A stretch of 64,000 nt of DNA from an uncultured bacterium (GTDB taxonomy: Bacteria > Omnitrophota > Omnitrophia > Omnitrophales > Aquincolibacteriaceae): positions 19,019 through 83,018 of the forward strand of contig CAYPIR010000008.1 of the NCBI GenBank assembly GCA_964410905.1, in the 5' to 3' direction. Within the stretch, counting starts at the first letter, position 1; the number at the start of each line of letters is the position of its first letter. Made by a program: the position numbers and the translations under genes. The notes beneath the pieces are model-generated. The model did no database searches. It saw nothing but the letters and a program-made list of their open reading frames with translations, and had not been told where the DNA came from. Of this stretch, positions 7,285 to 63,144 are shown one piece after another.

Positions 7285-7695
7285 ATGTATCAAGTATCCA
7301 AAACATTGTATTTTAATTATGGGCATAGACTTTTGGGCGGGCACGACAAGTGTTCGCATCTTCACGGGCACAGCGCGCGAGTCGAAATAAAAATGTCGGT
7401 GGAAAAATTGAACAAACAAGGAATGGTAGTGGATTTTTTTGATATTAAAAAAAGCATTGGCGAGTGGATTGAAAAAAATTTAGATCACAAAATGATTCTT
7501 TGTCAAAAAGATCCACTTGTGAAGCTGCTGAAATTGGCGGGCGAGCCTGTTGTAACAATTCAAGAAAATCCCACGGCGGAACGTTTGGCATTTCTTATTT
7601 TCAAAGAAGCACGGCGAGTTAAACTGCCTGTAACAAGCGTAACGCTTTGGGAAAACCAAGATAGTTGTGCTGTCTACAAAGAATCTCTTGGATAA
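7285..7695 (+). CDS. queD: 6-carboxy-5,6,7,8-tetrahydropterin synthase QueD (PTPS family).
   Basis: N-terminal YFNYGHRL and the CxxxxHGH zinc motif (KCSHLHGHSARVEI). Confidence 0.8.
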   Translation: MYQVSKTLYFNYGHRLLGGHDKCSHLHGHSARVEIKMSVEKLNKQGMVVDFFDIKKSIGEWIEKNLDHKMILCQKDPLVKLLKLAGEPVVTIQENPTAERLAFLIFKEARRVKLPVTSVTLWENQDSCAVYKESLG

Positions 7696-7708
7696 AAACA
7701 TATCAGAT

Positions 7709-41371: not shown

Positions 41372-41656
41372 ATGGATTTAAATATTGAAAAAACGGCAAA
41401 TCTCGCTCGGCTTAGTTTGAGCGATGATGAAAAACAAAAATTTGGCAATGATTTGTCCGCAATTTTGGAATATGTCAAAAAGCTGGAGAGGCTGGACACA
41501 ACAAGCGTGGAACCGACAAGCCATGTTTTGGACTTACAAAATGTTTTTAGAGAAGATAAAGTTCAGAAGTCAATGGCAGCTGAAAGAGCGTTGAAACATG
41601 CGCCGGAATCGGACGGGCTTTTTTTCAAAGTTCCTAAAATTGTTCAAAGGGATTAA
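41372..41656 (+). CDS. gatC: Asp-tRNA(Asn)/Glu-tRNA(Gln) amidotransferase subunit C.
   Basis: 94 aa; typical GatC N-terminus IEKTANLARLSLSDDEK...VEP. Confidence 0.85.
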   Translation: MDLNIEKTANLARLSLSDDEKQKFGNDLSAILEYVKKLERLDTTSVEPTSHVLDLQNVFREDKVQKSMAAERALKHAPESDGLFFKVPKIVQRD

Positions 41657-41661
41657 GCGAT

Positions 41662-43077
41662 ATGGACTTAACAAAACTCAGCTTAAAGGAAGCGATTGAT
41701 TTTGCGAAAGCGAATGGAGCGGACGCGATTATTGAGGCGTTTTCCGAGCGGACGGAAAAACTCAATCCAAAAGTAAACGCGTTTTTGCGGTTTGATAAAG
41801 ATAAAATCGAAGCGGGTTCTCGGGGCGAACTTTTCGGCGTGCCGATTTCTTTTAAAGACAACATTTGTATTGAGAACCGCGAAGTAACTTGCGCGTCTAA
41901 AATTCTTAAAAATCATATCGCGCCATATGACGCGACTGTAACTGAAAAATTAAAAAATGTCGGCGCGACAATTTTTTCGCAGTGTAATATGGACGAGTTC
42001 GCTTTCGGTTCATCTTGTGAGACTTCGGCGTTTGGCGCGTGCAGAAATCCTTGGAATCTTGATTTTGTTCCCGGCGGCTCAAGCGGCGGTTCTGCCGCGG
42101 CTGTCGCGGCGGATATGACTGTCGCGGCGCTTGGCAGTGATACTGGCGGTTCGATTCGTCAGCCCGCGGCGCTTTGCGGAGTTGTCGGTGTAAAACCGAC
42201 TTACGGACGAGTTTCAAGGTATGGCTTAATAGCGTTCGGCTCCAGCTTTGACCAAATTGGACCCATTACAAAAACGGTTGAAGACGCGGCAATTCTTTTG
42301 AATATTTTAAGCGGGCATGACACAAAAGATTCGACATCTGCGCCCGTTCAAACCCCGGATTTTACAAAATCTCTTAGACAAGATTTGAAGGGAATTCGTA
42401 TCGGCCTTCCTAAAGAATATTTTATAGATGGTATTGATACTGAGGTTGAGCGTGCGGTTCGTGCCGCTGCGGATTTTTATAAATCTCAAGGCGCGGAGAT
42501 AAAAACAATCAGTCTTCCTCATACGGAATATTCTGTTGCGGTTTATTACATTGTTGCGGTGGCTGAAGCGAGTTCAAACCTTGGACGGTTTGACGGCGTT
42601 GAGTATGGGCTTCGTATCCCTACAAAAGATTTGCGCGAGATGTATTTTGAAACTCGCGGGCAAGGTTTTGGGCAGGAAGTTAAACGTCGAGTTTTGCTTG
42701 GAACATTTGTTTTGTCGGCGGGTTATTATGAGGCTTATTATTTGAAAGGGCAAAAAGTGCGCACGCTTATCCGTCAAGATTTTGAAAATGCTTTCAAAGA
42801 AGTCGATGTGATATTGTCGCCGACATCGCCAACGCCGGCGTTTAAAATTGGAGAAAAAACCGCCGACCCAATCGCGATGTATCTTTCAGACATTTTTACA
42901 ATACCAGCCAACTTAGCTGGAGTTCCAGCAATGTCTCTCCCGTGCGGCTTTACCTCAAACAAACTCCCAATCGGACTGCAATTAATGGCGCGTCCATTTG
43001 AAGAGACTACAATGTTCCGCACCGCGCACGCGCTTGAGCAGTCTCTTGGCCTCTACAAATCCCGTCCTAATTTATAA
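41662..43077 (+). CDS. gatA: Glutamyl-tRNA(Gln) amidotransferase subunit A.
   Basis: Amidase signature GGSSGGSAAAVAA and the catalytic Ser-cisSer-Lys context. Confidence 0.9.
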   Translation: MDLTKLSLKEAIDFAKANGADAIIEAFSERTEKLNPKVNAFLRFDKDKIEAGSRGELFGVPISFKDNICIENREVTCASKILKNHIAPYDATVTEKLKNVGATIFSQCNMDEFAFGSSCETSAFGACRNPWNLDFVPGGSSGGSAAAVAADMTVAALGSDTGGSIRQPAALCGVVGVKPTYGRVSRYGLIAFGSSFDQIGPITKTVEDAAILLNILSGHDTKDSTSAPVQTPDFTKSLRQDLKGIRIGLPKEYFIDGIDTEVERAVRAAADFYKSQGAEIKTISLPHTEYSVAVYYIVAVAEASSNLGRFDGVEYGLRIPTKDLREMYFETRGQGFGQEVKRRVLLGTFVLSAGYYEAYYLKGQKVRTLIRQDFENAFKEVDVILSPTSPTPAFKIGEKTADPIAMYLSDIFTIPANLAGVPAMSLPCGFTSNKLPIGLQLMARPFEETTMFRTAHALEQSLGLYKSRPNL

Positions 43078-43117
43078 GCGTAAAATTTTTCATGGTCTAT
43101 TACTGCTCTTAGCGAGC

Positions 43118-43810
43118 ATGCAAACTAGTAATGGATTGCATAAAAAGCAAAATAAGCAACTTATCAAAAATTGTTTGGTAGGGCTGTATAACACAATTTT
43201 TCAAAAGGACATTGTTTTGCGAGAGAAATTTAAAGATATTTCAAAGTTGAAAAGTGTTGTTAACTTTGTTTTTGACAATATAGGAAGTGAAACTTCGATC
43301 AGAAATATCAGCAATTCTTTGGCGCTCGATGACCGCAAAATTTATCCGCAAACAGTTGAGACGTATTTGCAGGCTTTGAGCGACAGTTATTTATTGTATA
43401 AAGCCGATAGATACAATATTAAAGGCAAACAATATTTGCAATTTAACTCAAAATACCATGTGGCGGATATTGGACTGCGCTACGCTTTGCTCGGAGCAAA
43501 AACTGGAGATGCTGTACATAATTTTAGAAAACATAGTTTTTTTGGAGCTGTTTGCAGAGGATATAAGATTTCAATAGGTAAAATTAATGATTTGGAAGTC
43601 GATTTTATCGCGCAAAAATTTTTTGACGAAGTTGAGTATTATCAAGTTTGCGAGAATATAAATGACAGTAAAACTTCAAAACGAGAACTTAAAAGTTTGC
43701 AGAGTATAAACGATAATTATCCAAAATTTTTGTTGTCTAAAAGTTATTCCACCAGCACATATGACGGCATAAAGTATAAAAATGTTTTTGAATGTCTTTT
43801 GGAAGGTTAG
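43118..43810 (+). pseudogene. N-terminally truncated COG1373-type AAA+ ATPase (only the DUF4143-like C-terminal part remains).
   Basis: Translation matches the C-terminal DUF4143 region of COG1373 ATPases (KYHVADIGLRYALLG, EVDFIAQK). There is no Walker A/B AAA domain. The upstream in-frame ORF (42998-43117) runs into the gatA coding region. Confidence 0.5.
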
Positions 43811-43823
43811 GGAATAACAGATT

Positions 43824-44042
43824 TTAAAAATCCAAAAGTCGCGAGCAAGTGATTTTAAATACCTTGGCGAGTTTTTCTAAAGTGTCTAGCGTCGTAGCGG
43901 TGGGATTTTTTGATTCCAGCATTTGATAGAAACGCGTGCTTACTCCAATAATTTCCGCAGTTTTTTCCTGCGTCAAACCAGCCTTTTTTCTTTCTCTCTT
44001 TAGCGCTTCCGCAAATTGAAGCCTGATTTTTGGGATAGACAT
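43824..44042 (-). CDS. XRE-family helix-turn-helix transcriptional regulator.
   Basis: 72 aa with the HTH core LKRERKKAGLTQEKTAEIIGVSTRFYQMLESK. Confidence 0.75.
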   Translation of the reverse strand: MSIPKIRLQFAEALKRERKKAGLTQEKTAEIIGVSTRFYQMLESKNPTATTLDTLEKLAKVFKITCSRLLDF

Positions 44043-44227
44043 GACCCAAATTATCCCGATAAACTCGTCTTATAACCACGAAGTATTGCTTCGTAAAAAC
44101 TTATTGTTTGAAAATTGTTTAAGGGTTATTATTTGCAGCCTTAACGAAGAGAAGTTCTGGGTTTGGGATATGTTATTTTAAAAAAGTTGTTTACTAGTGA
44201 CAGTTTCTCAAAACAAGAGGAGAAAAA

Positions 44228-45181
44228 ATGATTAAAAAAGCGGTTTTATTCTTATTGGTGTTTTGTTGCGCTGTGGATTTTGCGGCGTTTGCTGATGTCT
44301 ATCGGCGAATCAAAGTCACGGCGGTTAGCGAAAATGAAGCCAAGCTTGCAGCGCTTGAAAAATATGTTAGCGAGCAAGATTCTCAAAAGGCGATTCTTCT
44401 TGAGGGCGGGCGGCAAAAAATCACAGAGAATATTAATCTTTACTTCCCAGAATATGTAGATATGGGCGGAGGCATAGGACAAGTTTCCGTAAACGAGCAG
44501 CAACTAGATTTGTTGATACGGCAATCGTCTTCAAACAATGAATCTCTGCCTCTTTCCTTTATTTTTGTTGCTAGGAAAGTTACGGAGGTTAAAAGTTTTA
44601 AAAAACGAGAAGTTGTTCGCAACGAAGAAAGCGAAAACATTTCAGAGTCTGAAGATGGAACGTTAAAGCATTCGTTTTCTACACAATCGGGCGGCTCCAC
44701 TACTCAGAAAAAAGACAAAATTATTTACGAAGCTTGCAATATGACAGACGTAATTTCAAAAGTAACGGAAGTTTTTTCAAAGGCAGGTTTTGACGTTGTG
44801 TCTCCCGCGGACATTGGTTTAGAGCAAATAGAATTTTCTGAAAATTACGTAGAAAACGATAATTTGCCAGCGGATATGGAAACAAAAGCTAAACGTGCGG
44901 CTCGTGAGGCGGAGCTTCCTTTGTTGTCTATAGCGACTATGACTGTAGGAAGACCGGAGGATGATGACGCGTCAGGGATGAAAAAAATAGCAGTGTCTAT
45001 TACCGGAAATATTTGGGACACAAGAGGGAAATTTGCTAAATCCGTAGGCGCGGTGGGGCCTGTGCAGCATTACGGTATGGGAAACAACTCTGATGTCGCG
45101 GAAAAGAACGCGCTTATTGAGGCTGCGACTATAGCAGCAGAAGACCTTGTAAATCAATTGCGTGTTCGCGGCATTAACTAA
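44228..45181 (+). CDS. Secreted protein with an LPP20/FlgP-like C-terminal region (first gene of a six-gene secreted-protein operon).
   Basis: Signal peptide MIKKAVLFLLVFCCAVDFAAFA. C-terminal alanine-periodic helix NNSDVAEKNALIEAATIAAEDLVNQL resembles LPP20-family lipoproteins. Confidence 0.5.
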   Translation: MIKKAVLFLLVFCCAVDFAAFADVYRRIKVTAVSENEAKLAALEKYVSEQDSQKAILLEGGRQKITENINLYFPEYVDMGGGIGQVSVNEQQLDLLIRQSSSNNESLPLSFIFVARKVTEVKSFKKREVVRNEESENISESEDGTLKHSFSTQSGGSTTQKKDKIIYEACNMTDVISKVTEVFSKAGFDVVSPADIGLEQIEFSENYVENDNLPADMETKAKRAAREAELPLLSIATMTVGRPEDDDASGMKKIAVSITGNIWDTRGKFAKSVGAVGPVQHYGMGNNSDVAEKNALIEAATIAAEDLVNQLRVRGIN

Positions 45182-45194
45182 CAAGGAAAATCAA

Positions 45195-46229
45195 ATGATA
45201 TACAAAAAAATTCTTATTTTGATTTGCGTAATTTCCTTATTTCAAAACATCGCTTGGTCGCAAGAAGCGAAAGGGAAGATATTGAAAGTTGCTATTTTTA
45301 CGGAAGACAAAGCGATTAGCAGCGGCGGGGCGGTAGACAAAATCAAGGAATTTTTCAAAGGAAAAAATGCTGAAAGCAAGGAAATTTTAAATGACTTTAT
45401 TACATCTGGATTTGCCCAAACCGGGTATTTTTCAGTCATTGATAAGAATTATACGGCGCAAACCTTTGAAAAAGATTTTAATGGTGAGAGCGGGCTGGAG
45501 TCTTTGCAAGGGACTTCAGCCTTGCGTTTAGCGCAAATGCTTGGTGCTGATTATTTGTTAATAGCAACTATTACATCAGTAGAAGAAACTGAAAAAATCT
45601 TTGAGGGCTACGGAAGTAAAACAAAAAATCTCATAGTCGAAATGAATGTAAGTGTTCGACTTTTAGACGGGAACGGAGGTTCTTCTATTTATGCGGATAC
45701 CGTAAGCGCTTCAACCGTTATTAGAAATAATGAGTTTTTAAAACAGAAGTCATCAAACAATCTTCCGCCGCTTATCAGAGAAGCCTCTGCCAAAATAGTT
45801 AAGAATGTTAGCAAGGTCATAGAGCAAATAAGCGGGAAAGCGAAATCATTAGAGCAATTACAGGGTGTTAATTTTATTATTAATTGCGATGTCGAAAACG
45901 CCAATGTCGAATTGGATGGCGCGGTGATTGGTGTCGCTTCGGGCGCGTTTGTTGCCAAACCGGGACTTCACAGTTTGAAGATTTTTAAAGAACGTTACTC
46001 TCCTTGGATAAAAAGGGTAAATATTTTTGCTGATCAGATTATATCGGTTCACTTGGATAAGAGCGATGAAGGTTTTGTTGAAGATATGAAAGAAAGACAG
46101 TTTGAATCTCAAATGAAAAGATATGACGCGGAGACAGATGCGCAGACGACATTGGTTGAGGCAAAAGCGAAAATGTTAAATAAATCTAAGGCTGAAGTGA
46201 AAATAAAAGGCAATATAAAAAATGTTTGA
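45195..46229 (+). CDS. CsgG-family lipoprotein-like protein with a C-terminal PEGA domain.
   Basis: Signal peptide. CsgG-like core ILNDFITSGFAQTGYFSVIDKN...LAQMLGADYLLIATITSVEE...VSVRLLDGNGGSSIY. PEGA-like segment CDVENANVELDGAVIGVASGAFVAKPGLHSLKIFKERYSPW. Confidence 0.6.
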   Translation: MIYKKILILICVISLFQNIAWSQEAKGKILKVAIFTEDKAISSGGAVDKIKEFFKGKNAESKEILNDFITSGFAQTGYFSVIDKNYTAQTFEKDFNGESGLESLQGTSALRLAQMLGADYLLIATITSVEETEKIFEGYGSKTKNLIVEMNVSVRLLDGNGGSSIYADTVSASTVIRNNEFLKQKSSNNLPPLIREASAKIVKNVSKVIEQISGKAKSLEQLQGVNFIINCDVENANVELDGAVIGVASGAFVAKPGLHSLKIFKERYSPWIKRVNIFADQIISVHLDKSDEGFVEDMKERQFESQMKRYDAETDAQTTLVEAKAKMLNKSKAEVKIKGNIKNV

Positions 46230-46239
46230 AAGGAGCCAG

Positions 46240-47139
46240 ATGAATATTAAGAAAACATTTTCCTTTTTTGTAGTTATTTGTTTGTTGAGTTCGACAAATC
46301 TTTTTGCGGATGAGGGAAAATCATCTCTTGCCGTCGCTGAGATAAAAAACACATCAGGCAAAGCCCCAAATTCTTTTGTTGTGGCGTTAGACGGGATATT
46401 AATCGAAGCAATTTCAAACACACGAAAATTTAATTTGGTTGACAGGAGCCGATGGAAAGATTTGCAAAAAGAACAAAGTTTTTCTGACTCTGGCGAAGTC
46501 GACTTAAACGATGAATCTCGCGCGCAGTTTGGAAAAATTGCCGGGGCGAAATATTTGTTGCTGCCAGACATCATTGAGTTCAGCGATAAGTTGCAACAAA
46601 TAAATTATGAAAAAATGCAGAAAACAATAGAAAAGAAAAGCGTGTCATTAACTTTGAATGTGCGTATTGTGGACTCATCAACAGGGAAAATCGTTTCTTC
46701 TGCTACCGTTTCAGATGCGAAAACTGGCAATGGCGATTTGCTTACGGAAGTTTCAAAATCTGTTGCGGAACAAACGGCGCAAAGAGTGATAGACGTGATT
46801 TATCCTGCCAAAGTTTTATCTGTTATCGGGAGCCAAGTGATATTTAATAGAGCCATAGGCGGCGGCTTCAATGAAGGTGATTTTATAGCCATTTATGCGG
46901 TTGGGAAGGAATTGATTGACCCAGACACACAAGAATCTTTGGGTAAAGAAGAAATTTTGGTCGCGGATGCGCAAGTTTTTGAGGTTGATTCAAAATTTTC
47001 TAAAGCGGAAATAAAAGGAGACAATTTGGGAGTTCAAAAGGGAAATATTATTAAGCACAAAACGATAACTAAACCTGATGTTGTAGAAAATAGAAAAGAT
47101 AAAAGTAAGAAGAAAGCGAACAATGATGAAGATTGGTAA
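46240..47139 (+). CDS. CsgG-family lipoprotein-like protein (second, divergent paralogue).
   Basis: AGGAG RBS and signal peptide. Core SLAVAEIKNTSGK...ILIEAISNTRKFNLVDRSRWKDLQKEQSFSDSG...KIAGAKYLLLPDIIEFS...LNVRIVDSSTGKIV matches the CsgG pattern. Confidence 0.6.
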   Translation: MNIKKTFSFFVVICLLSSTNLFADEGKSSLAVAEIKNTSGKAPNSFVVALDGILIEAISNTRKFNLVDRSRWKDLQKEQSFSDSGEVDLNDESRAQFGKIAGAKYLLLPDIIEFSDKLQQINYEKMQKTIEKKSVSLTLNVRIVDSSTGKIVSSATVSDAKTGNGDLLTEVSKSVAEQTAQRVIDVIYPAKVLSVIGSQVIFNRAIGGGFNEGDFIAIYAVGKELIDPDTQESLGKEEILVADAQVFEVDSKFSKAEIKGDNLGVQKGNIIKHKTITKPDVVENRKDKSKKKANNDEDW

Positions 47140-47338
47140 AATTTATATAGGTATATTTTGCTTTTTGATTTTGACGGGCTGCGCGGCTCAGCCGGTTGAG
47201 ACAAATAACCAAGCGGATTTGATTAGGTATATGGAAGAGCAAAATACCGACCAGAAGTACTGCTCTGTTTGCGGAAGGCATTTTCCAGCGTCTGTTAAGT
47301 ATTGTTCTAAAGATGGGAGCCTTTTGAAAAATGGCTAA
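47123..47338 (+). CDS. Small lipoprotein with a C-terminal CxxC...C zinc-ribbon-like motif.
   Basis: Lipobox ILTGC, then CSVCGRHFPASVKYCSKDG. Translationally coupled (overlaps) to both neighbouring genes. Confidence 0.4.
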   Translation: MMKIGKIYIGIFCFLILTGCAAQPVETNNQADLIRYMEEQNTDQKYCSVCGRHFPASVKYCSKDGSLLKNG

Positions 47339-48443
47339 AAAAAGCATTTTGCTTTTCGCGGCAGTTTTGGGGGTGATTATAAATTCATCAGTGGCATTTG
47401 CGGAAACAGATGTTTTTTATGCTGGGTTTGCTTATAGCGGTAAGTTCTCTGATATTGAATCTAATTTTAAATACACGGCTATGTTTAATAAGCCAAATGC
47501 GGAAGACCGCACATATTTAAACCAACTTTTTGGCGATTTTTTTAAAGACAATAATGTTTTTAATGAAATTAATTTAAAAATTGGCGAGATGAGCAAGCGA
47601 AATGATTCTCCTGTTGTTATGGCGATTACCGTCATTCGAGAGGGGGTAGCGATAGATGAATTTAGTGATTTTTTTAAAATAGTCGGAAATTTATTTTGTA
47701 ATGTTGTGTTTATGGATTTTAAGGAAAAGAGAATTGTAAGTTCGTACCCTGTGTTTGTTGAGTATGTTGATGCTGCGAAAGAAAGACCTTCCGATGCCTA
47801 TCTTGCTGAAATGATCAAAAAGATGTATTCGAGCGAGGAGTTTGGAATAATTGCCTCTATAAAACAGCGGATGAATAGCTTCCGGGCGGAGAACAGTTCT
47901 ATTTTGGCTGCCCAGATTGAAAATATTGAAATTTCTTTGAATGCACAAGAAATGCTAGAGACAAATGCTGACGGGATTGAACGCTTAAAAAGTTTTATGG
48001 TCTATAAATATTCTAGCGTTCTTTCGAGCGACCTTGGGATTTCTGTTCTTCCTCCATATCGCGACTGTTTGACTGGGAAAATGTCATTGGTCTTTTCTGA
48101 CGCGACAGAACAAAATTTTTTAATTCCGGAACCCGCCTATTCTGTTGATATGTCAGTAACTGATCTAAAAACAAAAATTCTCAAAGAAACGCCGTCGCAG
48201 ATAGGCTACGCATTTGGCGGCTATATTCATATAAAAGTTTATGAAAAGAAATTTAATAAAGTTTTTTTTGATAAGGAGGTAAAACACGGAGCGTCAAAAA
48301 ATGTTCCAAGTTCACAGAAAGGAGGAGATAAAAAAGAAATATTTACGGATGTTCTAGGTGGCGCGATGCAAAAATCGATAGATGAAATGAGAAATAATGA
48401 CGAGACGAATAAAACTTTTATTCGACTTTGTCAGAATTCGTAA
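47331..48443 (+). CDS. Hypothetical secreted protein (370 aa).
   Basis: Signal peptide MAKKSILLFAAVLGVIINSSVAFA; no recognisable domain. Confidence 0.5.
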   Translation: MAKKSILLFAAVLGVIINSSVAFAETDVFYAGFAYSGKFSDIESNFKYTAMFNKPNAEDRTYLNQLFGDFFKDNNVFNEINLKIGEMSKRNDSPVVMAITVIREGVAIDEFSDFFKIVGNLFCNVVFMDFKEKRIVSSYPVFVEYVDAAKERPSDAYLAEMIKKMYSSEEFGIIASIKQRMNSFRAENSSILAAQIENIEISLNAQEMLETNADGIERLKSFMVYKYSSVLSSDLGISVLPPYRDCLTGKMSLVFSDATEQNFLIPEPAYSVDMSVTDLKTKILKETPSQIGYAFGGYIHIKVYEKKFNKVFFDKEVKHGASKNVPSSQKGGDKKEIFTDVLGGAMQKSIDEMRNNDETNKTFIRLCQNS

Positions 48444-48464
48444 ACATAAAAAGAAAGGTAAAAT

Positions 48465-49112
48465 ATGAAGAGAATAACGCTTTTAGCAGTTTTGTTTTTA
48501 GTGGTCGGTTCAATTTCAGCATTTGCTTTTGGATTGCCTAAATTAGGCGGCTCAAGTTCTCAAGATGTTGGCGAAGATAAAGCAACGCCGGTAATTGTGG
48601 CGTATACGGCCTCATTAGAATTATTTAAAAAGGCAGAGGCTAGTGCGCTTGAGGCTTTTGGATTTAAGACAGAAGCGGCGATATCGCAAGCAGAGGCTGA
48701 AAGTGCGGGTAAGGGGAATCTAAACTCAGACGATATCAGCAAAAGCGCACAGGTCAGCACGGACGCTCAAAAGTTGATTCTGGAAGCAATCGCCAAAGGT
48801 GAAGTCTTGTCTGATGAAGCAAAAGCAAAGCTGAAAGAATCAGCGGTAAATGCAGGCAAGGGCTTAGTTGCGGAAACCGCCGTTGGTACTTTAGTAGCGG
48901 ATGCTGTTTCGGCAACGCAAACACAAGTTCAGCAACTCTCTTCAAATCCTATGCAACTAGGAGCGGTTAAAGGAAGACTAGATACTTTGCTGACCGTCTC
49001 GAAACTTATTCCTGATGACCTTGTTCAAAAGAAAAATTTATTGTCCGCGTATATCAATTATTTTAAAAGTCAGAATATTGAACTTCCAGCCGATGTAACA
49101 GATTTAATTTAA
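48465..49112 (+). CDS. Hypothetical secreted Ala/Gln/Lys-rich protein (215 aa).
   Basis: Signal peptide MKRITLLAVLFLVVGSISAFA. Low-complexity A/E/K/Q-rich helical-looking body. Confidence 0.5.
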   Translation: MKRITLLAVLFLVVGSISAFAFGLPKLGGSSSQDVGEDKATPVIVAYTASLELFKKAEASALEAFGFKTEAAISQAEAESAGKGNLNSDDISKSAQVSTDAQKLILEAIAKGEVLSDEAKAKLKESAVNAGKGLVAETAVGTLVADAVSATQTQVQQLSSNPMQLGAVKGRLDTLLTVSKLIPDDLVQKKNLLSAYINYFKSQNIELPADVTDLI

Positions 49113-49538
49113 GAGAAAAGTAAGTTTTAAAGATAAGGGCATTAAAGGCTGGGCGATTTTTCGTCCAGCCTTTTTTATTTCTTTAGAAGAGAATAAAGTT
49201 AATTCTTTTTGGAATTTGAAGAGACGCGCTATCGCGCCTTTGCTGGTAGCGCAAGGAAATTTTGTATATTTTTTGATAACGGAAAAATTTTTAGAACCAA
49301 TTAAGTCTTTGCGGAAAACACTTGCGTCGAACGCTACGGCGTTTGCGCCATTCTCAAAATACTCTTTTATGTTTTCCTCCCTAACGCTGTCGCACGCTAA
49401 AAGTTGAATGTCTGAAAATGGCCCGCGAAGTTCTTTAAAATATTTGGGAGTGAAGCAACTAACGGAAAAAACTTTGACCATTGTCGCTCCGCCGTCCCAT
49501 ATTGTGCAGTTCAAAACCTTAATTTGTTCGCGATACAT
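49104..49538 (-). pseudogene. Fragment of a KDPG/KHG aldolase (Eda)-like gene (C-terminal portion only).
   Basis: The translation TMVKVF...PKYFKELRGPFSDIQLL...NIKEYFENGANAVAFDASVFRKDLI aligns with the C-terminal third of Eda. The catalytic N-terminal two-thirds is missing. The ORF tail reads through the convergent terminator. Confidence 0.4.
49145..49178 (+). terminator. Rho-independent terminator ending the six-gene secreted-protein operon.
   Basis: GGCTGG-gcgatttttcgt-CCAGCC stem followed by TTTTTTATTT. Confidence 0.65.
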
Positions 49539-52196: not shown

Positions 52197-52877
52197 ATGA
52201 ACACACAAAATGATAAAAAACTGCTGAGTTATCCTTCAATACGGCGAATGCCTTCTTATTTGAGGCTGTTAAAAGAACTTTTGGCGAAGGGAGGGAAGAC
52301 GGTTTCTGCTACTGTTTTGGCGGATGTTCTTGGGCTAGAGTCAATAGTTGTTCGTAAGGATTTTGAGTCGCTTCCTATCATAGGAAAGGCTGGTATCGGT
52401 TATGAGATTCCGGAACTTATAAAAGCTATAGAAGATCATCTAGGGTGGAATAAAGTTACGGACGCGTTTCTGATTGGAACGGGACATCTTGGGACAGCAC
52501 TTTTGGGTTACAGAGGATTTGAGCAATATGGTGTAAGAATTGCGTTGGCGTTTGATGCCGACCCTAAAAAAACTCATCAAACTATAAGTGATATTCAAGT
52601 TAGACCAATCGAAGAGTTGCCGCAGATGGCGGAGAAAATGAAAGTTAAAATAGGGATTTTGACCGTGCCCGCTGAGCAAGCGCAAGGCGTTGCGGAAAAA
52701 ATGGTTGCGGCTGGGATTCGCGGAATTTGGAATTTCGCGCCGGCAAAATTGATGTTGCCGCCTGATGTGGTTGTTCAAAATGAGGATTTGGCTGAGGGCT
52801 TGGCGGTTTTGTCTGTGAAACTTGACAGACTAAAAGCAAAGGCGATGGACGAGAATGTTGAGGGTTTGAGAAGTTAA
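52197..52877 (+). CDS. rex: Redox-sensing transcriptional repressor Rex.
   Basis: N-terminal winged-helix RRMPSYLRLL...VSATVLADVLGL and Rossmann motif LIGTGHLGTAL. Confidence 0.85.
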   Translation: MNTQNDKKLLSYPSIRRMPSYLRLLKELLAKGGKTVSATVLADVLGLESIVVRKDFESLPIIGKAGIGYEIPELIKAIEDHLGWNKVTDAFLIGTGHLGTALLGYRGFEQYGVRIALAFDADPKKTHQTISDIQVRPIEELPQMAEKMKVKIGILTVPAEQAQGVAEKMVAAGIRGIWNFAPAKLMLPPDVVVQNEDLAEGLAVLSVKLDRLKAKAMDENVEGLRS

Positions 52878-52922
52878 GGTTTGATTTATTTATAAAATTT
52901 TTTAAACAAGGGGAGAAAGAGA

Positions 52923-53426
52923 ATGTCAAAGACGATTCTTTTTAGGAAATTTCAAAGAGTGGGAGAAATTCTCGAAGCGCACAATTATAGCGCGTCAAAC
53001 CTGATAGCGATTTTGCAAAAAGTTCAGGAAGAATACCGCTATCTTCCAGAAGAAGTGCTTCTTTATATTGCCGAAATGCTTGAGATTCCGCCGGCGCGTA
53101 TTTACGGCGTCGCGACTTTTTACTCGCATTTTACTCTCAATCCCAAAGGGAAATATTTAATCAGACTTTGCGATGGAACGGCTTGCCATGTCAAACGATC
53201 AACAGGGATTTTAGAAAAACTCCGCGAAAAACTCGGGCTAAACGAAACCAAAATAACAACGGACGATATGCTTTTTACGGTTGAAACAGTGTCTTGTCTT
53301 GGGGCTTGCGGACTTGCTCCGGTAATTATGATCAATCACGACATACACGGACAAATGACGCCGCAAAAAGCCGTAGAACTTGTTGACTCGATTATCGCGA
53401 AGGAGGATACAAATGTCGCAGCTTAA
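52923..53426 (+). CDS. NuoE-like [2Fe-2S] thioredoxin-fold subunit of the NADH-dependent [FeFe] hydrogenase (HydC/HndA-type).
   Basis: Cys motif CDGTACH...CLGACGLAPV. Confidence 0.85.
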   Translation: MSKTILFRKFQRVGEILEAHNYSASNLIAILQKVQEEYRYLPEEVLLYIAEMLEIPPARIYGVATFYSHFTLNPKGKYLIRLCDGTACHVKRSTGILEKLREKLGLNETKITTDDMLFTVETVSCLGACGLAPVIMINHDIHGQMTPQKAVELVDSIIAKEDTNVAA

Positions 53427-55302
53427 TATTGAAATAAAATCTTCCGGCGTTCTGAAACGCAAACTTACTGTATGCGCAGGAACGGCGTGTCGGGCAAACG
53501 GCGCGCTTAAAGTTTACGCGGCGTTTGTTGAAAAAATTAAACAAGCGGGATTTGATGTCGTTGAGTCTTTGTCTGAAGAGAACAAGCACAAGGACGATCC
53601 GAAGGTTTTCAGGACTTCCAAAAGCGGCTGCCAAGGATTTTGTCAAATGGGGCCTCTTGTAACTATTGAGCCGGAGGGCTTTCTCTATGTCAAAGTTCAA
53701 GAATCCGACGTCGTGGAAATTGTCGAGCAAACGCTTGTTAAAAATGAACTTGTAGACCGTCTTCTTTATGTCGATCCCGCGACAAAAGAAAAATATCCTA
53801 AACACGATGAAATTCATTTTTATAAAAAACAATCACGCTCCGTTTTGAAACTTTGCGGCGCGATTGATCCGGAATCCATCGAGGAATATTTTGCTAAAGG
53901 AGGATACGAGGCCTCTAAAAAAGTTTTGACCACAAAAACTCCTGAAGAAGTTTGTAAAGAAATGATGGATTCAGGGCTTCGCGGCCGCGGCGGCGGGGGA
54001 TTTCTCACAGGAAAAAAATGGGATTTAACGCGTCTGCAAAAGGGAGATGTTAAATATCTAATTTGTAATGGCGATGAAGGCGACCCCGGCGCGTTTATGG
54101 ATAGGTCGGTGATGGAAGGAAATCCTCATAGCGTTCTTGAGGGAATGACTATAGCGGCATACGCCATTGGAGCGTCTGAAGGCGTGATTTATGTTCGAGC
54201 GGAATATCCGCTTGCGGTTGAAAATATGCGTAAGGCGGTGGAGAGCGCGCACAGCGCGGGAATGCTCGGTAAAAATTTATTTGGAACTAATTTTAGTTTT
54301 AATTGCCGCGTTGTTGAAGGCGCCGGAGCTTTTGTATGCGGAGAAGAAACCGCGCTTATAGCATCTGTTGAAGGCTGCCGCGGCATGCCTCGTCCTAAAC
54401 CGCCGTTTCCCGCGCAGAGCGGACTTTGGGGAAAGCCGACTTGCATCAACAATGTTGAAACTTTGGCGAGCGTTCCAATCGTATTTCGCATGGGCGCGAG
54501 TGAATTTAAAAAAATCGGCGTGCCGACTTCCACGGGAACAAAAACTTTTGCGCTTACGGGACATGTGGCCAATACCGGACTTATTGAAGTTCCGTTTGGA
54601 ATGACTCTCCGCGAAATCGTTTTTGACATTGGCGGTGGGGTTACGGACGCTAAGGGCAAAATTATGAAAGATGGTTTTAAGGCGGTGCAGATCGGAGGTC
54701 CGTCCGGCGGGTGTCTCACATCTGAGCATTTGGATTTGCCGCTTGAATATGAATCTCTTAAAAAAGTCGGCGCTATGATTGGTTCCGGCGGGCTTGTTGT
54801 TATGAACTGTGATACTTGCATGGTAAACGTAGCCAGATATTTTATGCAATTTACGCAAAATGAATCTTGCGGGAAATGCGTTCTTTGCCGTGAAGGCACA
54901 AAGCAAATGCTGTCGCTTTTAGACGACATAATAGAAGGTCGCGCGACAATGGCGACTTTGGATTTAATGAAAGAACTTGCTGAGGTTGTGCAAAAAGGTT
55001 CTCTTTGCGGTTTAGGGAAAACGGCGCCGAATCCGGTGCTTTCTACCATGAAATATTTTAGAGAAGAATATGAGCAGCATGTCCGCGATAAGTGGTGTCC
55101 GACTGGGGCGTGTAAGTCGCTTGCGCGGCCTGAAATTATCGCCGAAAAATGCTGCGGTTGCGGGATGTGTAAAAAAGTTTGCCCTGTCAGCGCTATTACG
55201 GGAGAAATTAGACAAGCGCACGTGATTAATTCAGCGATTTGCATCAAATGTGGAGCTTGTGCTCAAGCTTGTAAATTTAACGCGATTGTGGGGGTGGCGT
55301 AA
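53413..55302 (+). CDS. NuoF-like flavoprotein subunit of the [FeFe] hydrogenase (HydB/HndC-type), with NADH/FMN site and Fe-S clusters.
   Basis: AAGGAGG RBS. N-terminal 2Fe-2S-like Cys (CAGTACRANG). FMN/NADH motif GLRGRGGGGFLTGKKW. ESCGKCVLCREG. Two C-terminal CxxCxxCxxxCP clusters. Confidence 0.9.
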   Translation: MSQLNIEIKSSGVLKRKLTVCAGTACRANGALKVYAAFVEKIKQAGFDVVESLSEENKHKDDPKVFRTSKSGCQGFCQMGPLVTIEPEGFLYVKVQESDVVEIVEQTLVKNELVDRLLYVDPATKEKYPKHDEIHFYKKQSRSVLKLCGAIDPESIEEYFAKGGYEASKKVLTTKTPEEVCKEMMDSGLRGRGGGGFLTGKKWDLTRLQKGDVKYLICNGDEGDPGAFMDRSVMEGNPHSVLEGMTIAAYAIGASEGVIYVRAEYPLAVENMRKAVESAHSAGMLGKNLFGTNFSFNCRVVEGAGAFVCGEETALIASVEGCRGMPRPKPPFPAQSGLWGKPTCINNVETLASVPIVFRMGASEFKKIGVPTSTGTKTFALTGHVANTGLIEVPFGMTLREIVFDIGGGVTDAKGKIMKDGFKAVQIGGPSGGCLTSEHLDLPLEYESLKKVGAMIGSGGLVVMNCDTCMVNVARYFMQFTQNESCGKCVLCREGTKQMLSLLDDIIEGRATMATLDLMKELAEVVQKGSLCGLGKTAPNPVLSTMKYFREEYEQHVRDKWCPTGACKSLARPEIIAEKCCGCGMCKKVCPVSAITGEIRQAHVINSAICIKCGACAQACKFNAIVGVA

Positions 55303-57326
55303 TGGATAATACAATTAAAACAATAAAAGTTGACGGCATTGAACTTCCAATCGAAGGAGAACGAAACCTTTTGGAAGTAATTAGAAAAGGAGGAATTGAA
55401 ATTCCGACTTTTTGTTATCACTCTGAACTCAGCATTTACGGCGCGTGCCGGTTGTGCATTGTCGAAGTCGAAGGTCGTGGAATTATGGCGTCTTGCTCTA
55501 CGCCGCCTGAATCGGGGCTTAAAGTTCATACGGCAACGGCTGAAGTTCGTAAGATGCGTAAAGTTGGTCTGGAGCTTTTGCTTGCAGGACACGAACAAGA
55601 ATGCACGACGTGTTATAAAAATACAGCTTGCAAACTTCAAACGCTATCCAAGAACTTTGGCATTGAAAAAGTCAGATTTCGTCAAATGCAAAAAAACTTG
55701 CCGTCAGATTTTTCTTCGCCGTCGCTGGTCCGCAATCCTAATAAATGTATTTTATGCGGCGACTGCGTCCGTATGTGCGAAGAAGTGCAGGGGATTGGAG
55801 CGATTGATTTCGTGCATCGCGGGCATAAGGCAATTGTGCTTCCATCGTTTGGCAAAGATTTAGCAAAAGTGGAATGTGTAAATTGCGGACAATGCGCTCG
55901 CGTGTGTCCGACAGGCGCGCTTACGCCTAGGTCTGAAGTGGATGAGGTTTGGAAAGATGTAAACGATCCGACAAAAAGAGTTATTGTTCAGATCGCTCCC
56001 GCCGTGCGCGTCGCACTTGGCGAAGAGTTTGGACTTGAACCCGGCAGTATTTCTACGGGGAAAATGGTAACGGCGCTTCGCATGATGGGCTTTGATGCCG
56101 TTTATGACACGTGCTTTGCCGCGGATCTTACTATAGTTGAAGAGGCGGAAGAATTTGTTCGCCGCATTCAATCCGGAGGAGTTTTTCCGCAATTTACATC
56201 CTGCTGCCCGGCATGGATTAAATATGCTGAGCAATATTATCCTGAAATTTTTAAAAATATTTCTAGTTGTAAATCTCCGCAGCAGATGTTTGGCGCGGCG
56301 GCGAAAGAGGCGCTTGTTAAATCAAGCGGTGTTGAGCGCAAAGATTTTGTGGTTGTATCCATTATGCCCTGCACGGCAAAGAAATTTGAAGCGAAACGTC
56401 CGGAGTTTTTTGTCGATGGAAACCCGGATGTCGATCACGTTTTGACGACTCAGGAGCTTGCGCAGATGATACGCGAACGCGGTATTTGTTTTAATCAACT
56501 TAAGGCGCAGGACTTTGATCACCCGTTCGGCGAAGCCACCGGAGCGGGCGTTATATTTGGAAATTCCGGCGGAGTAACGGAAGCGGCGCTGAGGTATGTT
56601 GTGGAGAAAATAACTAATCAGCCTCTCCAGAATGTTGAGTTTAAGGAAGTTCGCGGCGAGGATGGCGTGCGCGAAGCGAGTCTTAATGTTGCGGGAAAAA
56701 CTGTGAATGTAGCGATAGCGTTTGGGCTCGCGAACGCGAAGCTGCTCTGCGATCAAGTGAAAAAAGGCGAAAGTAAATATCATTTGATAGAAGTTATGGC
56801 ATGCCCCGGAGGCTGTGTTGGAGGTGCCGGGCAGCCCGTTGTTTTAACGGGAGATACGCGTCGTAAGCGCGCTAAGGGGCTTTATGACTCGGACAAGATG
56901 AAGAAGGATCACAAGGCTCAAGAAAATGCCGAGATAAAAAAACTTTATGCTGATCACATCGGCGAAATAGGCGGCGCGAAAGCGCATCAGCTTTTGCATA
57001 CGCATTATCATAATCGCAGAAGATTTACGTCTGAAGGGTTGCCGCTTATTAAGAGCGACGCGCCGGAGCATGTCGATGTCGAGGTCTGCGTTGGGACGGC
57101 GTGTCACACGCGTGGAGCTGAGAGTCTTTTAAGCGGACTTGTTAAATATGTGGAAGAGGCGAAGTTAAAAAACATTGTTAACATTAAAGGAACATTTTGT
57201 TTTGAAAATTGTGGGAAAGGCCCAAGCGTCAGAATTGGCGATAAAATTTATAACGAATGCACGCTTGCTTCCACGAAAGAAATTTTAGACAAGCAAATTT
57301 CCGCGTTATCGCTTAAAAACTCTTAA
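55302..57326 (+). CDS. hydA: [FeFe] hydrogenase catalytic subunit (NuoG-like N-terminus; H-cluster domain; C-terminal thioredoxin-like 2Fe-2S domain).
   Basis: H-cluster motifs TSCCPAW (L1), MPCTAKKFE (L2) and EVMACPGGCVGGAGQP (L3), with N-terminal 2Fe-2S/4Fe-4S Cys clusters. Confidence 0.9.
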   Translation: MDNTIKTIKVDGIELPIEGERNLLEVIRKGGIEIPTFCYHSELSIYGACRLCIVEVEGRGIMASCSTPPESGLKVHTATAEVRKMRKVGLELLLAGHEQECTTCYKNTACKLQTLSKNFGIEKVRFRQMQKNLPSDFSSPSLVRNPNKCILCGDCVRMCEEVQGIGAIDFVHRGHKAIVLPSFGKDLAKVECVNCGQCARVCPTGALTPRSEVDEVWKDVNDPTKRVIVQIAPAVRVALGEEFGLEPGSISTGKMVTALRMMGFDAVYDTCFAADLTIVEEAEEFVRRIQSGGVFPQFTSCCPAWIKYAEQYYPEIFKNISSCKSPQQMFGAAAKEALVKSSGVERKDFVVVSIMPCTAKKFEAKRPEFFVDGNPDVDHVLTTQELAQMIRERGICFNQLKAQDFDHPFGEATGAGVIFGNSGGVTEAALRYVVEKITNQPLQNVEFKEVRGEDGVREASLNVAGKTVNVAIAFGLANAKLLCDQVKKGESKYHLIEVMACPGGCVGGAGQPVVLTGDTRRKRAKGLYDSDKMKKDHKAQENAEIKKLYADHIGEIGGAKAHQLLHTHYHNRRRFTSEGLPLIKSDAPEHVDVEVCVGTACHTRGAESLLSGLVKYVEEAKLKNIVNIKGTFCFENCGKGPSVRIGDKIYNECTLASTKEILDKQISALSLKNS

Positions 57327-62800: not shown

Positions 62801-63144
62801 AGTTTTTTTTACGCACCGATTTTGGAACGATTGAAGGTATAATCGATGTTCTGTTTCAAGACAAGGACGGAGCGTGGCATATTGTTGATTATAAAACAGC
62901 GTCCGGGGACGATGAGAAAGCCCGCCGAAGTGCTTATGATTTGCAGCTTGAAATTTATGCGGCCGCGGCGGAAAAGATACTAAATATAAAAATTGAAACG
63001 ACTGCGGTTTATTACCTAGAGAATCAAACTGTCGTTTCGGTCGAGATAAACCGCGGAGATGAAAACTCACTTGAGAAAATTCACAAGCTGCAAAGGGATG
63101 TTTTGAATTTTTGCAATTCAAATATTCAAAAACAAATATTATGA
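59812..63144 (+). CDS. addA: ATP-dependent helicase/nuclease subunit A (UvrD-like helicase plus C-terminal RecB-family nuclease).
   Basis: Walker A AGAGTGKTRVLTERI; UvrD motifs (ILVDESQDTN, GDYNQSIYGFRG, VHAAKGLEFP, YVAMTRAKERLFLSG). Nuclease motif IIDVLFQDKDGAWHIVDYKTA. Confidence 0.85.
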   Translation: MPEFSLTTDQKTAINTLDKNLVVAAGAGTGKTRVLTERIIEIRKRNSDISFKNILALTFTDKAAAEMKERLDKRLRADERLAKFLPDLENAQISTIHSFAFEFLKKYPIEAGIDPNFSVLDEEQADILREEILDGIIEKRFEDDKETFEIFTVYAEGAVRDGIIKIYDKAMSLGKTVENFFQTRAKKRDEFCEDLEKKIEISIKSLPDLKGRNAKDEKQTLQMFFNNKFWDEKVLEDFKTWRSGYKRRGKGKDEWRGVADELLSLRKEYLTNKWRTKLEKLVIEFEKKYHEKKTKKGLLDFEDLQNKAVELLRGETAISQKIRLDTQARYKFILVDESQDTNDLQMELIGLIASEKNLFYVGDYNQSIYGFRGTRPENFKKIENDFQISESAKCVKLRDNFRSSPAILKVVNSYFEDKLKILELQASGQRNREKDFYQNEKEAVKWNIQFYADGEDNVDGARIKEAQHIARQIKAIVEKEETFDEETKEERKLAFGDIAILFRAMSNVLLYATALKAQNIPFFIASGRGFYDQSEIRDMLNFLTFLEKPFAEVSLAAVLRSPFFHINDETLARLANRAKKGKADNDAGTLYDAFAELENIDSIADEQKKRLRHFVNVVQELLSLKEKILVSDLMEKILEKTGYDLFLLMEQKGIRQDANIKKLITMTREYEADEHLSLADFLKRVKRRTDNKVKEMEAQIYLEKEANAVRLMTVHAAKGLEFPVVFVVDIFRKANSGGKKKIIKESTEGYSMGLPNDDDKPCFWQKINKVLNDRDNEEKNRVLYVAMTRAKERLFLSGGKKKKDNEDEYSSAEIIKYCNDNDFKTEQFTDESKTEFAEENFRERISKVIDEAKDWGNETTAEQILKPYWERIDLPVSAFCLFKKDPESFWRVYLLGAKQNCLPNQNDFEIKEKEMPSVEKTDADEPLSHAEFGTAIHSFLEKKLDDLDTMDLGAETNAVFKRFGETARNAQKMLEDFAKSEMYKKIKNAQKTYKEVQFFLRTDFGTIEGIIDVLFQDKDGAWHIVDYKTASGDDEKARRSAYDLQLEIYAAAAEKILNIKIETTAVYYLENQTVVSVEINRGDENSLEKIHKLQRDVLNFCNSNIQKQIL

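Follow-up and report, generated by a model that had tools for sequence, protein, structure and literature searches.

LpoB, LptE and the TolB N-domain are monomeric adaptors that have one fold in common with a set of ring-forming envelope proteins. Rings of this fold occur in the periplasm (PelC, 12-mer; PqiC, 8-mer; CsgG, 9-mer), and LptE plugs a barrel (PMC13631591). PelC, PqiC and LptE are single small lipoproteins with defined partners (PelB, PqiB and LptD), the curli protein CsgG comes with CsgE and CsgF, FlgT belongs to the Vibrio H ring, and TsaP is the secretin-associated ring protein of type IV pili. A cluster of CsgG/HfaB, GNA1162 (DUF799) and a lipoprotein, which brings together a CsgG-family protein and TolB-like lipoproteins, is widespread and poorly understood (Acinetobacter baumannii UPAB1, Neisseria, Vibrio). 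Here, we report a six-gene operon in a 64,000-nucleotide stretch of DNA (the window), whose four-gene core recurs, entirely without annotation, as an operon of at least 77 bacterial species and points to an undescribed periplasmic complex, not a curli-type secretion channel.

ORF reading of the window placed six genes (P1 to P6) on the plus strand between 44228 and 49112. The features of the locus are as follows.

43824..44042, minus strand: XRE/HTH_3 regulator (Pfam HTH_3 at 1e-12), divergent from the operon
44043..44227, plus strand: presumed promoter region, 185 bp, intergenic, upstream of P1
44228..45181, plus strand: P1, 317 aa, B-family component
45195..46229, plus strand: P2, 344 aa counted from ATG, lineage-variable partner of P3
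46240..47139, plus strand: P3, 299 aa (alternative ATG at 46222), D-family component, shortened
47126..47338, plus strand: P4, 70 to 71 aa, lipoprotein
47331..48443, plus strand: P5, 370 aa, A-family component
48465..49112, plus strand: P6, 215 aa, C-family component
49144..49183, plus strand: rho-independent terminator (13-bp stem, 4-nt loop, T-run)

Intergenic distances from P1 to P6 were, in order, +13, +10, −14, −8 and +21 bp, and a purine-rich, ribosome binding site (RBS)-like stretch lies 5′ of every start (aagaggag upstream of the P1 ATG). The hairpin at 49144 to 49173 (13 pairs, then a T-run) is the top terminator-like site within 43.5 to 49.8 kb. Tight packing and a single terminator make P1 to P6 one operon, in agreement with the first-pass annotation, which had described six packed, co-directional genes closed by a terminator. 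Because only weak sigma-70-like matches were found in 44043..44227, we infer the operon promoter, which presumably lies there. The divergent XRE gene reported earlier is present but is not kept beside the module elsewhere (none adjoined related clusters in the neighbourhoods of related loci), and its functional tie to the operon is uncertain.

All six N-termini carry two K/R residues, a hydrophobic stretch (Kyte-Doolittle 10-aa mean, 2.8 to 3.5) and an AXA-like site; by this heuristic, which alone was used to call signal peptides, all operon products are predicted to be Sec exported, as had been proposed. A motif scan of the N-termini with the canonical lipobox pattern [LVI][ASTVI][GAS]C found no match in P2 or P3 (P3 N-terminus, …FVVICLLSSTNLFA/DEG, thus lacking CsgG-type lipidation), so the earlier label of two tandem CsgG-like lipoproteins is unsupported as to lipoprotein status. 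P4 (lipobox LTGC) is the operon's sole canonical lipoprotein and has the cysteine pattern CxxC-x10-C foreseen for it, with a zinc-ribbon-like CxxC...CxxD motif and only sub-threshold zinc-ribbon matches. Its single homologue is a 71-aa gene of a marine relative (L002; 38% identity); P4 is absent from L091/L092 and from all 77 genome loci and, on this distribution, is lineage specific.

The module was defined by four families, A (P5), B (P1), C (P6) and D (P3). P5, P1, P6 and P3 match genes 1, 2, 3 and 4 of the proteobacterial clusters, respectively (BLASTP, 3e-36, 7e-37, 4e-6 and 8e-12), and a genome scan located module loci in several phyla; the synteny check suggested by the first-pass annotation thus returned the four core genes together in 77 species. 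Exact ABCD order was found in 62 of the 77 loci; most of the others were contig-end cuts or ORF-calling artefacts, and five were true rearrangements (four DABC, one CABD). All four families stand adjacent and co-directional in the window in the order B..D..A C, and its operon (B-P2-D′-P4-A-C) is a permuted, expanded form of the conserved, self-contained A-B-C-D. Contig L092 has the order A-B-C-P2like-P3like, and the marine relative L002 has B-P4like-A-C. No other gene family was conserved in the module flanks, where genomic contexts vary. A small Transgly-like gene lies near one related locus. RefSeq calls the homologues "hypothetical protein," A, B and C (three of the four families) are without any database model (Pfam, NCBIfam, PADLOC), and no paper on the cluster was found; the earlier description of the module as uncharacterised holds.

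After its signal peptide, P3 has a CsgG-like core together with a TsaP-like beta domain, and its basic tail ends in NDEDW; the LPP20-like N-domain and lipobox seen in proteobacterial D are missing. LPP20 itself matched only a single canonical D protein, in its N-domain and with a sub-threshold score (20.9 bits versus a cut-off of 25.9). An HMM search bore out the CsgG-family core claimed for P3 (PF03783, 5e-14, 52.5 bits versus a cut-off of 20.8), and canonical D proteins scored 33 to 49 bits. Structural matches of the D-family profile included TsaP (6ve2_O, 5e-6), 3jc8 (3e-4) and CsgG (4e-4), and the beta domain is homologous to that of TsaP. Besides the TsaP-like domain, D carries a long disordered tail, whose C-terminal acidic-x-Trp is conserved in the family. 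In P2, the signal peptide precedes an alpha/beta domain of CsgG type (roughly residues 25 to 220), a PEGA domain and a charged C-terminal helix. The PEGA domain predicted for it was recovered (PF08308, residues 227 to 287, 1e-6, 28.8 bits versus a cut-off of 20.8). Its CsgG-like core was confirmed by homology of the N-domain to that of P3/D (hhalign 96.8%, E = 3e-10; BLASTP 3e-5), through which alone P2 links to the CsgG family. A P2 homologue (31% identity), also annotated PEGA, follows A-B-C on contig L092.

In P1, the signal peptide is followed by a helical N-domain of reduced size; the C-domain is TolB-N/CsgG-like and contains a disordered insert ending GGSTTQK. The Ala-rich C-terminal helix, previously taken for an LPP20/FlgP-like end, is the final helix of this C-domain, and Pfam returned no LPP20 match at E ≤ 1 in P1 or, for PF02169, at E ≤ 0.1 in 22 B-family members. 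P5, thought to have no recognisable domain, does show a recognisable fold: behind its signal peptide, the secondary-structure pattern beta-alpha-alpha-beta-beta-beta-beta-alpha occurs twice, which we read as two CsgG/LptE/FlgT-type domains in tandem, and the protein ends in a helical hairpin and an invariant Cys367. P6 is not of low complexity, as one of the last two products had been described, but belongs to a well-aligned helical family (26 to 35% identity to the third gene of related clusters). Its signal peptide and a Gly/Ser linker lead into some 170 aa of helical domain, the C-terminus bears a conserved I-x-(V/L)-P-x-D motif, and no relatives were found in PDB or Pfam.

Four products (P1, P2, P3 and P5) thus share the fold of the ring-forming envelope proteins CsgG and PelC and of the TolB N-domain; C is a conserved helical protein. 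The alpha/beta domain of A, B, P2 and D is common to the TolB N-domain, CsgG, PelC, LptE, PqiC, LpoB and FlgT, and its reuse several times per system offers a compact natural experiment. Because the four families showed no sequence relation to one another in profile-profile comparison, the fold that A and B have in common with D is taken from two AF2 models (overall pTM for P1, 0.57). In contrast to PelC, PqiC and LptE, the module has four to five different fold-bearing proteins and optional lipidation. Unlike FlgT and TsaP, it has no flagellar or pilus genes nearby; Pfam matches to FlgT_M (PF16539) were below cut-off, and neither FlgT family membership nor a flagellar context was found. The module is present in Chlorobaculum, known as a non-motile genus. 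A domain search found no LysM domain in P1 to P6 or canonical D proteins, a difference from TsaP, and flank comparison found no secretin gene conserved near the module. The Helicobacter pylori Lpp20 operon (HP1454, Lpp20, HP1457) and HpaA have no sequence-level relation to the locus, where P1 lacks an LPP20 match and P3 an LPP20-like domain.

We favour, at about even chances, a passive, periplasmic, sometimes lipid-tethered hetero-oligomeric scaffold that is not a CsgG-type pore. The proteins would assemble in the periplasm, probably into a ring like those of PelC, FlgT and TsaP; ring formation is argued solely from fold analogy and domain homology. A membrane tether would exist where one component is lipidated, namely D in most beta- and gammaproteobacteria and P4 in the window lineage. 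D is not lipidated in delta- and alphaproteobacteria or Chlorobaculum, and in several lineages no component has a lipid anchor; outer-membrane tethering is therefore not general. The acidic-Trp C-terminal peptide of D and the invariant C-terminal Cys of A, two simple and testable sequence features, may be points of inter-subunit docking or cross-linking. A-B-C-D encodes no ATPase, inner-membrane protein or beta-barrel and for this reason its role would be a passive one, that of a structural part or an adaptor where outer membrane and peptidoglycan meet. More tentatively, and with somewhat less than even probability, A-B-C-D could be an unrecognised, widespread periplasmic nanomachine, a multi-layered ring or cage of four proteins (three with the TolB-N/CsgG fold) joined by the acidic-Trp docking peptide and the C-terminal Cys, with a function that has no counterpart in named secretion, flagellar, pilus, Lpt, Pel or Tol systems and with the window holding a six-gene rearrangement of it, in an anaerobic lineage that is poorly sampled. 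If true, its role might be, for instance, that of a new trans-envelope conduit or of a structure that organises outer membrane and peptidoglycan.

It is unlikely that the module anchors or assembles surface polysaccharide or matrix in the manner of the three-gene A. baumannii CsgG/GNA1162 (DUF799)/lipoprotein cluster or Caulobacter HfaABD. P2 recalls that cluster in a weak GNA1162-like match (PF05643, 3.7e-4), but the score is under the curated cut-off (20.5 versus 25.9 bits), the composition differs, and neither A, B nor C is represented there or related to DUF799 or DUF4810. Genes for polysaccharide synthesis or export are not conserved near the module, which has no known link to PNAG or pili. 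Similarly improbable is a non-ring adaptor or regulator of the LpoB or TolB-N type, in which the D linkers would reach through peptidoglycan to an envelope enzyme (peptidoglycan synthase or hydrolase) or Tol-Pal. P3 scores below the cut-offs of LpoB models (PF13036, 19.8 versus 22.3 bits; the equivalog TIGR02722, 19.9 versus 110.55); four co-conserved proteins exceed the need of any known Lpo-type activator, and the cluster has no conserved PBP or hydrolase neighbour, although one locus has the Transgly-like gene.

Curli-like (type VIII-like) export or assembly, with a CsgG-like outer-membrane conduit, P6/C and perhaps P5/A as substrates or a surface structure and P1/B as a CsgE-like periplasmic cap or chaperone, is slightly more doubtful. 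P3 and D exceed the Pfam CsgG threshold, every protein is predicted to be exported, the operon logic is akin to csgEFG, and P6/C is helical, Ala rich and without fold relatives, with conserved termini that could be targeting signals. However, the CsgG profile match in P3 spans only positions 6 to 151 of 210, and the D-family alignment to the PDB entry goes no further than CsgG residue 196, short of the second transmembrane hairpin (TM2); in the alignment, the TM1-equivalent segment is charged (K/E/Q rich in P3, R/D rich in D), with TM1 and TM2 placed as in the CsgG structure papers. P3 therefore does not show the two amphipathic transmembrane beta-hairpins that each subunit gives the 36-stranded CsgG barrel, and is unlikely to be a CsgG-type pore. 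The lipid anchor is missing from P3 and, in several phyla, from D; module proteins add TsaP-like or PEGA domains and the acidic-Trp tail to what CsgG has, and no beta-barrel partner is encoded. Nor was there a CsgA, CsgB, CsgE or CsgF match (Pfam, NCBIfam) or an amyloid-type repeat in the six proteins, the former as noted before. The earlier suggestion that P5 and P6 might be cargo is not supported: as A and C they show the highest conservation among the core components of a cross-phylum four-gene operon, and they have a fixed length and are as conserved as "machinery," which is unusual in cargo. Of the earlier proposal of an uncharacterised outer-membrane assembly or secretion module distinct from curli, the exported, uncharacterised and non-curli parts stand, but the idea of a CsgG-type channel is weakened. 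That the genes are chance neighbours with no functional unit is hardly credible and effectively refuted by synteny: the families are mutually unrelated in sequence, but they stand side by side in 77 species from several phyla and in shifting genomic contexts, with genes that overlap or almost abut.

If the scaffold reading holds, the module is a conserved envelope complex so far unnoticed. Carriers include Xanthomonas, Lysobacter, Variovorax, Desulfobacteraceae and Chlorobaculum, as well as opportunistic pathogens and model strains (Stenotrophomonas, including S. maltophilia; Pandoraea; Burkholderia/Paraburkholderia; Cupriavidus metallidurans CH34), and its function is directly testable because genetically tractable hosts carry it.

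The six plus-strand genes at 44228-49112 (P1 to P6, in gene order) form a single operon of exported proteins. The operon is one form of a conserved module, self-contained and without annotation, that occurs in other bacteria as a four-gene operon, A-B-C-D (A, P5 family; B, P1 family; C, P6 family; D, P3 family). The window genes were as follows.

44228-45181, + strand, P1, 317 aa
45195-46229, + strand, P2, 344 aa counted from ATG (the mechanically longest ORF begins with GTG at 45162)
46240-47139, + strand, P3, 299 aa (alternative ATG at 46222)
47126-47338, + strand, P4, 70 aa
47331-48443, + strand, P5, 370 aa
48465-49112, + strand, P6, 215 aa

Measured from these starts, the successive intergenic distances from P1 to P6 were +13, +10, −14, −8, and +21 bp. 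A purine-rich, ribosome-binding-site-like stretch lay 5' of each of the six starts, and a 13-bp hairpin (49144-49173) followed by a T-run was the sole strong terminator-like site within 43.5-49.8 kb. The GC content of the operon region (0.36-0.41) was slightly below that of most of the window. At all six N-termini, two K/R residues came before a hydrophobic core whose Kyte-Doolittle mean over 10 residues was 2.8-3.5, and a cleavage motif of small residues was present; signal peptides were predicted heuristically from the N-terminal sequence.

One genome per species was searched with the B-family motif, yielding 77 loci. Genera included Stenotrophomonas, Xanthomonas, Lysobacter, Luteibacter, Dyella, Rhizobacter, Cupriavidus, Burkholderia/Paraburkholderia, Pandoraea, Variovorax, Comamonas, Polaromonas, and Roseateles, and the scan also recovered Desulfobacteraceae, Maridesulfovibrio, Kordiimonadaceae, Aliidongia, Colwellia, and Chlorobaculum. 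By HMM mapping, 62 of the 77 loci had A-B-C-D order; the others were contig truncated, affected by ORF-calling artefacts, or rearranged (DABC, Burkholderia type; CABD, once). A conserved extra partner was rejected, as the flanks of the 77 loci held no further conserved family (barrel, ATPase, or regulator) beyond within-genus synteny. A-B-C-D is a self-contained unit that moves between genomic contexts; in C. metallidurans CH34, it lies on the chromid. The A-family profile, run as a full HMMER search, matched 728 clusters at 50% identity among 1.84 billion representatives, 371 of them at an E value of ≤1e-30. All cluster genes on a Caballeronia plasmid are annotated “hypothetical protein,” and literature searches returned nothing specific on the A-B-C-D/P1-P6 cluster; that so conserved an operon (Stenotrophomonas, Burkholderiales, and others) is entirely uncharacterised would surprise specialists. 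Plasmid pSBC2-3 of Caballeronia sp. SBC2 (L094; 755325-760689) has the Burkholderia-type arrangement, as do L044, L045, L050, and L055, with a shorter D-like gene (end SDY) and two extra small hypothetical genes upstream of A-B-C; on the plasmid, a “cell wall anchor protein” gene and two integrase genes come after the cluster.

The exact proteins of the window operon were found on one short Logan contig only (3.7 kb, SRR11845623), and all window housekeeping proteins tested were singletons at 90% identity, so the window’s lineage is poorly sampled. Its closest relative (L002; marine metagenomes and one metagenome-assembled genome) showed 45-49% identity and the order FecR-domain protein, P1-like, P4-like, P5-like, and P6-like, with no CsgG-like gene in between and no D-like gene within the 21 kb examined. 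The FecR-domain protein (L002:7842-8609), 5' of B-P4-A-C, has a highly basic C-terminal tail and no counterpart at the window operon. Remoter P1 homologues sit in a four-gene cluster (381 aa, 377 aa, 217 aa, and a CsgG protein of 482-502 aa), whose products were homologues, by BLASTP, of P5 (3e-36), P1 (7e-37), P6 (4e-6), and P3 (8e-12), in that order. On metagenome contig L092, genes for a P2-like PEGA protein (31% identity) and a P3-like protein with the C-terminal end ...SDDW come after A-B-C, so counterparts of five of the six window genes keep together outside the window as well. The P3-like gene (L092:11890-12796) is split into 118-aa and 162-aa ORFs, the second keeping the ...SDDW end, which may reflect a frameshift, pseudogenisation, or an assembly error. 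Chlorobaculum has B, then a FlgT_M-like protein, then D. Thus, the window holds a permuted form, B-P2-D'-P4-A-C (D' being P3, a shortened D-family protein), in which P2 and P4 are lineage-variable additions to A-B-C-D. A metagenome scan for P2-like genes found two distant loci only, both with a P2-like lipoprotein and a P3-like protein among other lipoproteins and without A, B, or C. In L096 (1582-7798), the pair lies amid at least five other predicted lipoproteins, one of them LpoB-like in sequence pattern; A, B, and C are missing there, so P2 and P3 can be found as a pair away from these genes.

The first-pass annotation had described two adjacent CsgG-like genes, and profile searches agreed. 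P3 matched Pfam CsgG (5e-14, profile positions 6-151 of 210 only), and the N-terminal domain of P2 matched the CsgG-like domain of the P3 family (hhalign, 96.8%, E value of 3e-10; BLASTP, 3e-5). The PEGA domain proposed for P2 was recovered at residues 227-287 (Pfam, 1e-6). Sub-threshold Pfam matches were to GNA1162-like, FlgT_M, and DUF3280 for P2 and to LpoB and FlgT_M for P3. P4 had weak zinc-ribbon matches only, and P1, P5, and P6 had no match in Pfam or NCBIfam; the LPP20 assignment of P1 therefore fails, its helix being part of a TolB-N-like domain. Across 45 A-family, 22 B-family, and 34 C-family members, there was no consistent Pfam match, and window, Stenotrophomonas, and Pandoraea members belonged to no named NCBIfam family. 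A role in anti-phage defence was rejected, as PADLOC gave no match for the window or Stenotrophomonas proteins.

P5, earlier thought to lack a recognisable domain, was modelled with AlphaFold2 from the 45-sequence family alignment (pLDDT, 90; pTM, 0.86). The model has a beta-alpha-alpha-beta-beta-beta-beta-alpha pattern, twice, plus a C-terminal helical hairpin, and Foldseek matched it to HP0492, FlgT, LptE, and CsgG with a probability of 1.0. The TolB-N/CsgG-type alpha/beta fold is present in four of the six proteins (P1, P2, P3, and, probably in two copies, P5); such a domain has been described as common to the outer-membrane lipoproteins PqiC, LptE, PelC, and CsgG (PMC13631591). Kinship of A and B with D is at the fold level only: the four families A to D showed no paralogy in sequence (hhalign probabilities of <1%), with only P2 and P3/D related. 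All 45 aligned A-family members share one invariant Cys 3-4 residues before the C terminus (Cys367 in P5, about 48429-48431), a sequence pattern that suggests an intermolecular disulfide or other modification. In the B family, a nearly invariant GGS(T)TQK motif closes a disordered insert. P6 had been called low complexity; the C family is instead a well-aligned helical protein, and its motifs at both termini are conserved. It had no relative in PDB or Pfam, the best PDB profile match (BID, E value of 0.32) being treated as noise and no Pfam match being consistent across members.

The architecture of D was derived from a 33-sequence alignment and a profile search of PDB sequences. An LPP20-like N-terminal domain, weak (20.9 bits in one member) and missing in P3, is followed by a CsgG-homologous core (E value of 4e-4) aligned to CsgG residues 72-196 only; this alignment spans the position of the first hairpin, which is rich in charged residues in D and P3, and ends before the second. 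The third part, a beta domain, shares homology with the domain that is repeated in TsaP of P. aeruginosa (E value of 5e-6) and Myxococcus (3e-4), the protein that forms a ring around the secretin of the type IV pilus. D closes with a long disordered basic/Ala/Pro tail ending nearly always in acidic-x-Trp (DDKW, DPNW, and DADW; examples of such D proteins are L016:9707-11359 and L065:9467-10882). P3 ends in NDEDW (47122-47139), and Burkholderia-type D has Tyr for Trp in its SDY end. In Xanthomonadales-type D (L016, L017, L023, L024, L027, and L049), the LPP20-like and CsgG-like domains are separated by an additional S/A/E-rich stretch of ~60-80 aa that is missing from other lineages.

The only canonical lipobox among P1-P6 is LTGC in P4. 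P1, P2, and P3 have a Cys within the hydrophobic region (LVFCC, LILIC, and VVIC) that does not match the standard motif, so P2 and P3 were not borne out as lipoproteins. Most beta- and gammaproteobacterial D proteins have a lipobox, then a 25- to 45-aa Ala/Pro linker; delta- and alphaproteobacteria, Colwellia, and Chlorobaculum have D with a plain signal peptide, and A, B, and C at these loci are likewise without lipidation.

The module encodes no curli partner, ATPase, inner-membrane component, or beta-barrel, and the view of it as a distinct, uncharacterised module other than curli stands. It would not work as a CsgG-type pore, given that the hairpins which form the pore are absent or charged and that lipidation is optional. 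A-B-C-D combines known domain types in a composition unlike any named system, with three families lacking a database model, and we place it with CsgG/PelC/FlgT/TsaP-type periplasmic ring or adaptor modules, the assembly model being a fold analogy. By that analogy, we give about an even chance to P1-P6 and A-D forming a hetero-oligomeric scaffold in the periplasm, which would probably be a ring like those of PelC, PqiC, FlgT, and TsaP. Its role would be passive, as a structural or adaptor element, and in some lineages a lipid would tether it (through D in many Proteobacteria and P4 in the window), with the acidic-Trp end of D and the terminal Cys of A as putative docking or cross-link elements. 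It is unlikely that the module instead anchors matrix or polysaccharide in the manner of the A. baumannii CsgG/GNA1162 cluster, deletion of which reportedly abolishes PNAG, CUP pili, and biofilm, and an LpoB/TolB-like adaptor regulating an envelope enzyme is a similarly improbable reading. Curli-like export of C and/or A is rather more doubtful, since TM2 is missing and the conservation of A and C matches that of the remaining components. The proposed outer-membrane secretion, with P5 and P6 as cargo, was not supported. Chance juxtaposition of the genes is negligible, being excluded by synteny. The observations of the first-pass annotation on the operon were largely correct, the exceptions being LPP20 in P1, the lipoprotein status of P2 and P3, the lack of a recognisable domain in P5, and the low complexity of P6.

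The surroundings of the operon include the following features.

42998-43810, + strand, DUF4143 ORF; DUF4143 is its only match (residues 69-184); overlaps the 3' end of gatA (41662-43077)
43824-44042, divergent from the operon, HTH_3/XRE gene
49104-49538, − strand, KDPG/KHG aldolase ORF, 144 aa; only the last third matched (profile positions 121-195 of 196)
52197-57326, + strand, Rex-like regulator, then HydABC-type [FeFe] hydrogenase genes

The XRE gene reported divergently upstream is present, but its link to the operon is not conserved. Gene remnants lie on both sides of the operon and fit an accessory insertion beside gatCA. Upstream is the DUF4143 fragment, probably left from an AAA-ATPase/DUF4143 gene and marking the upstream limit of the accessory stretch; downstream is the C-terminal fragment of a KDPG aldolase, probably a truncated gene. 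The end of the aldolase ORF overlaps the P6 stop, and this ORF contains the operon terminator. gatC lies next to gatA (41372-43077), with no gatB after, and the accessory stretch begins directly after gatA. No Rfam family reached the gathering score anywhere in the 64-kb window. The hydrogenase genes encode 2Fe-2S thioredoxin-like, Nuo51-like, and Fe-only hydrogenase large-subunit proteins; the HydABC-type [FeFe] hydrogenase, Rex, and Nuo-like genes suggest an anaerobic fermentative organism. An AddB-like gene (ADDB_N plus PDDEXK; 7667-10813, + strand) lies ~49 kb from, and not adjacent to, an AddA-like gene (UvrD helicase plus PDDEXK; 59812-63144, + strand).
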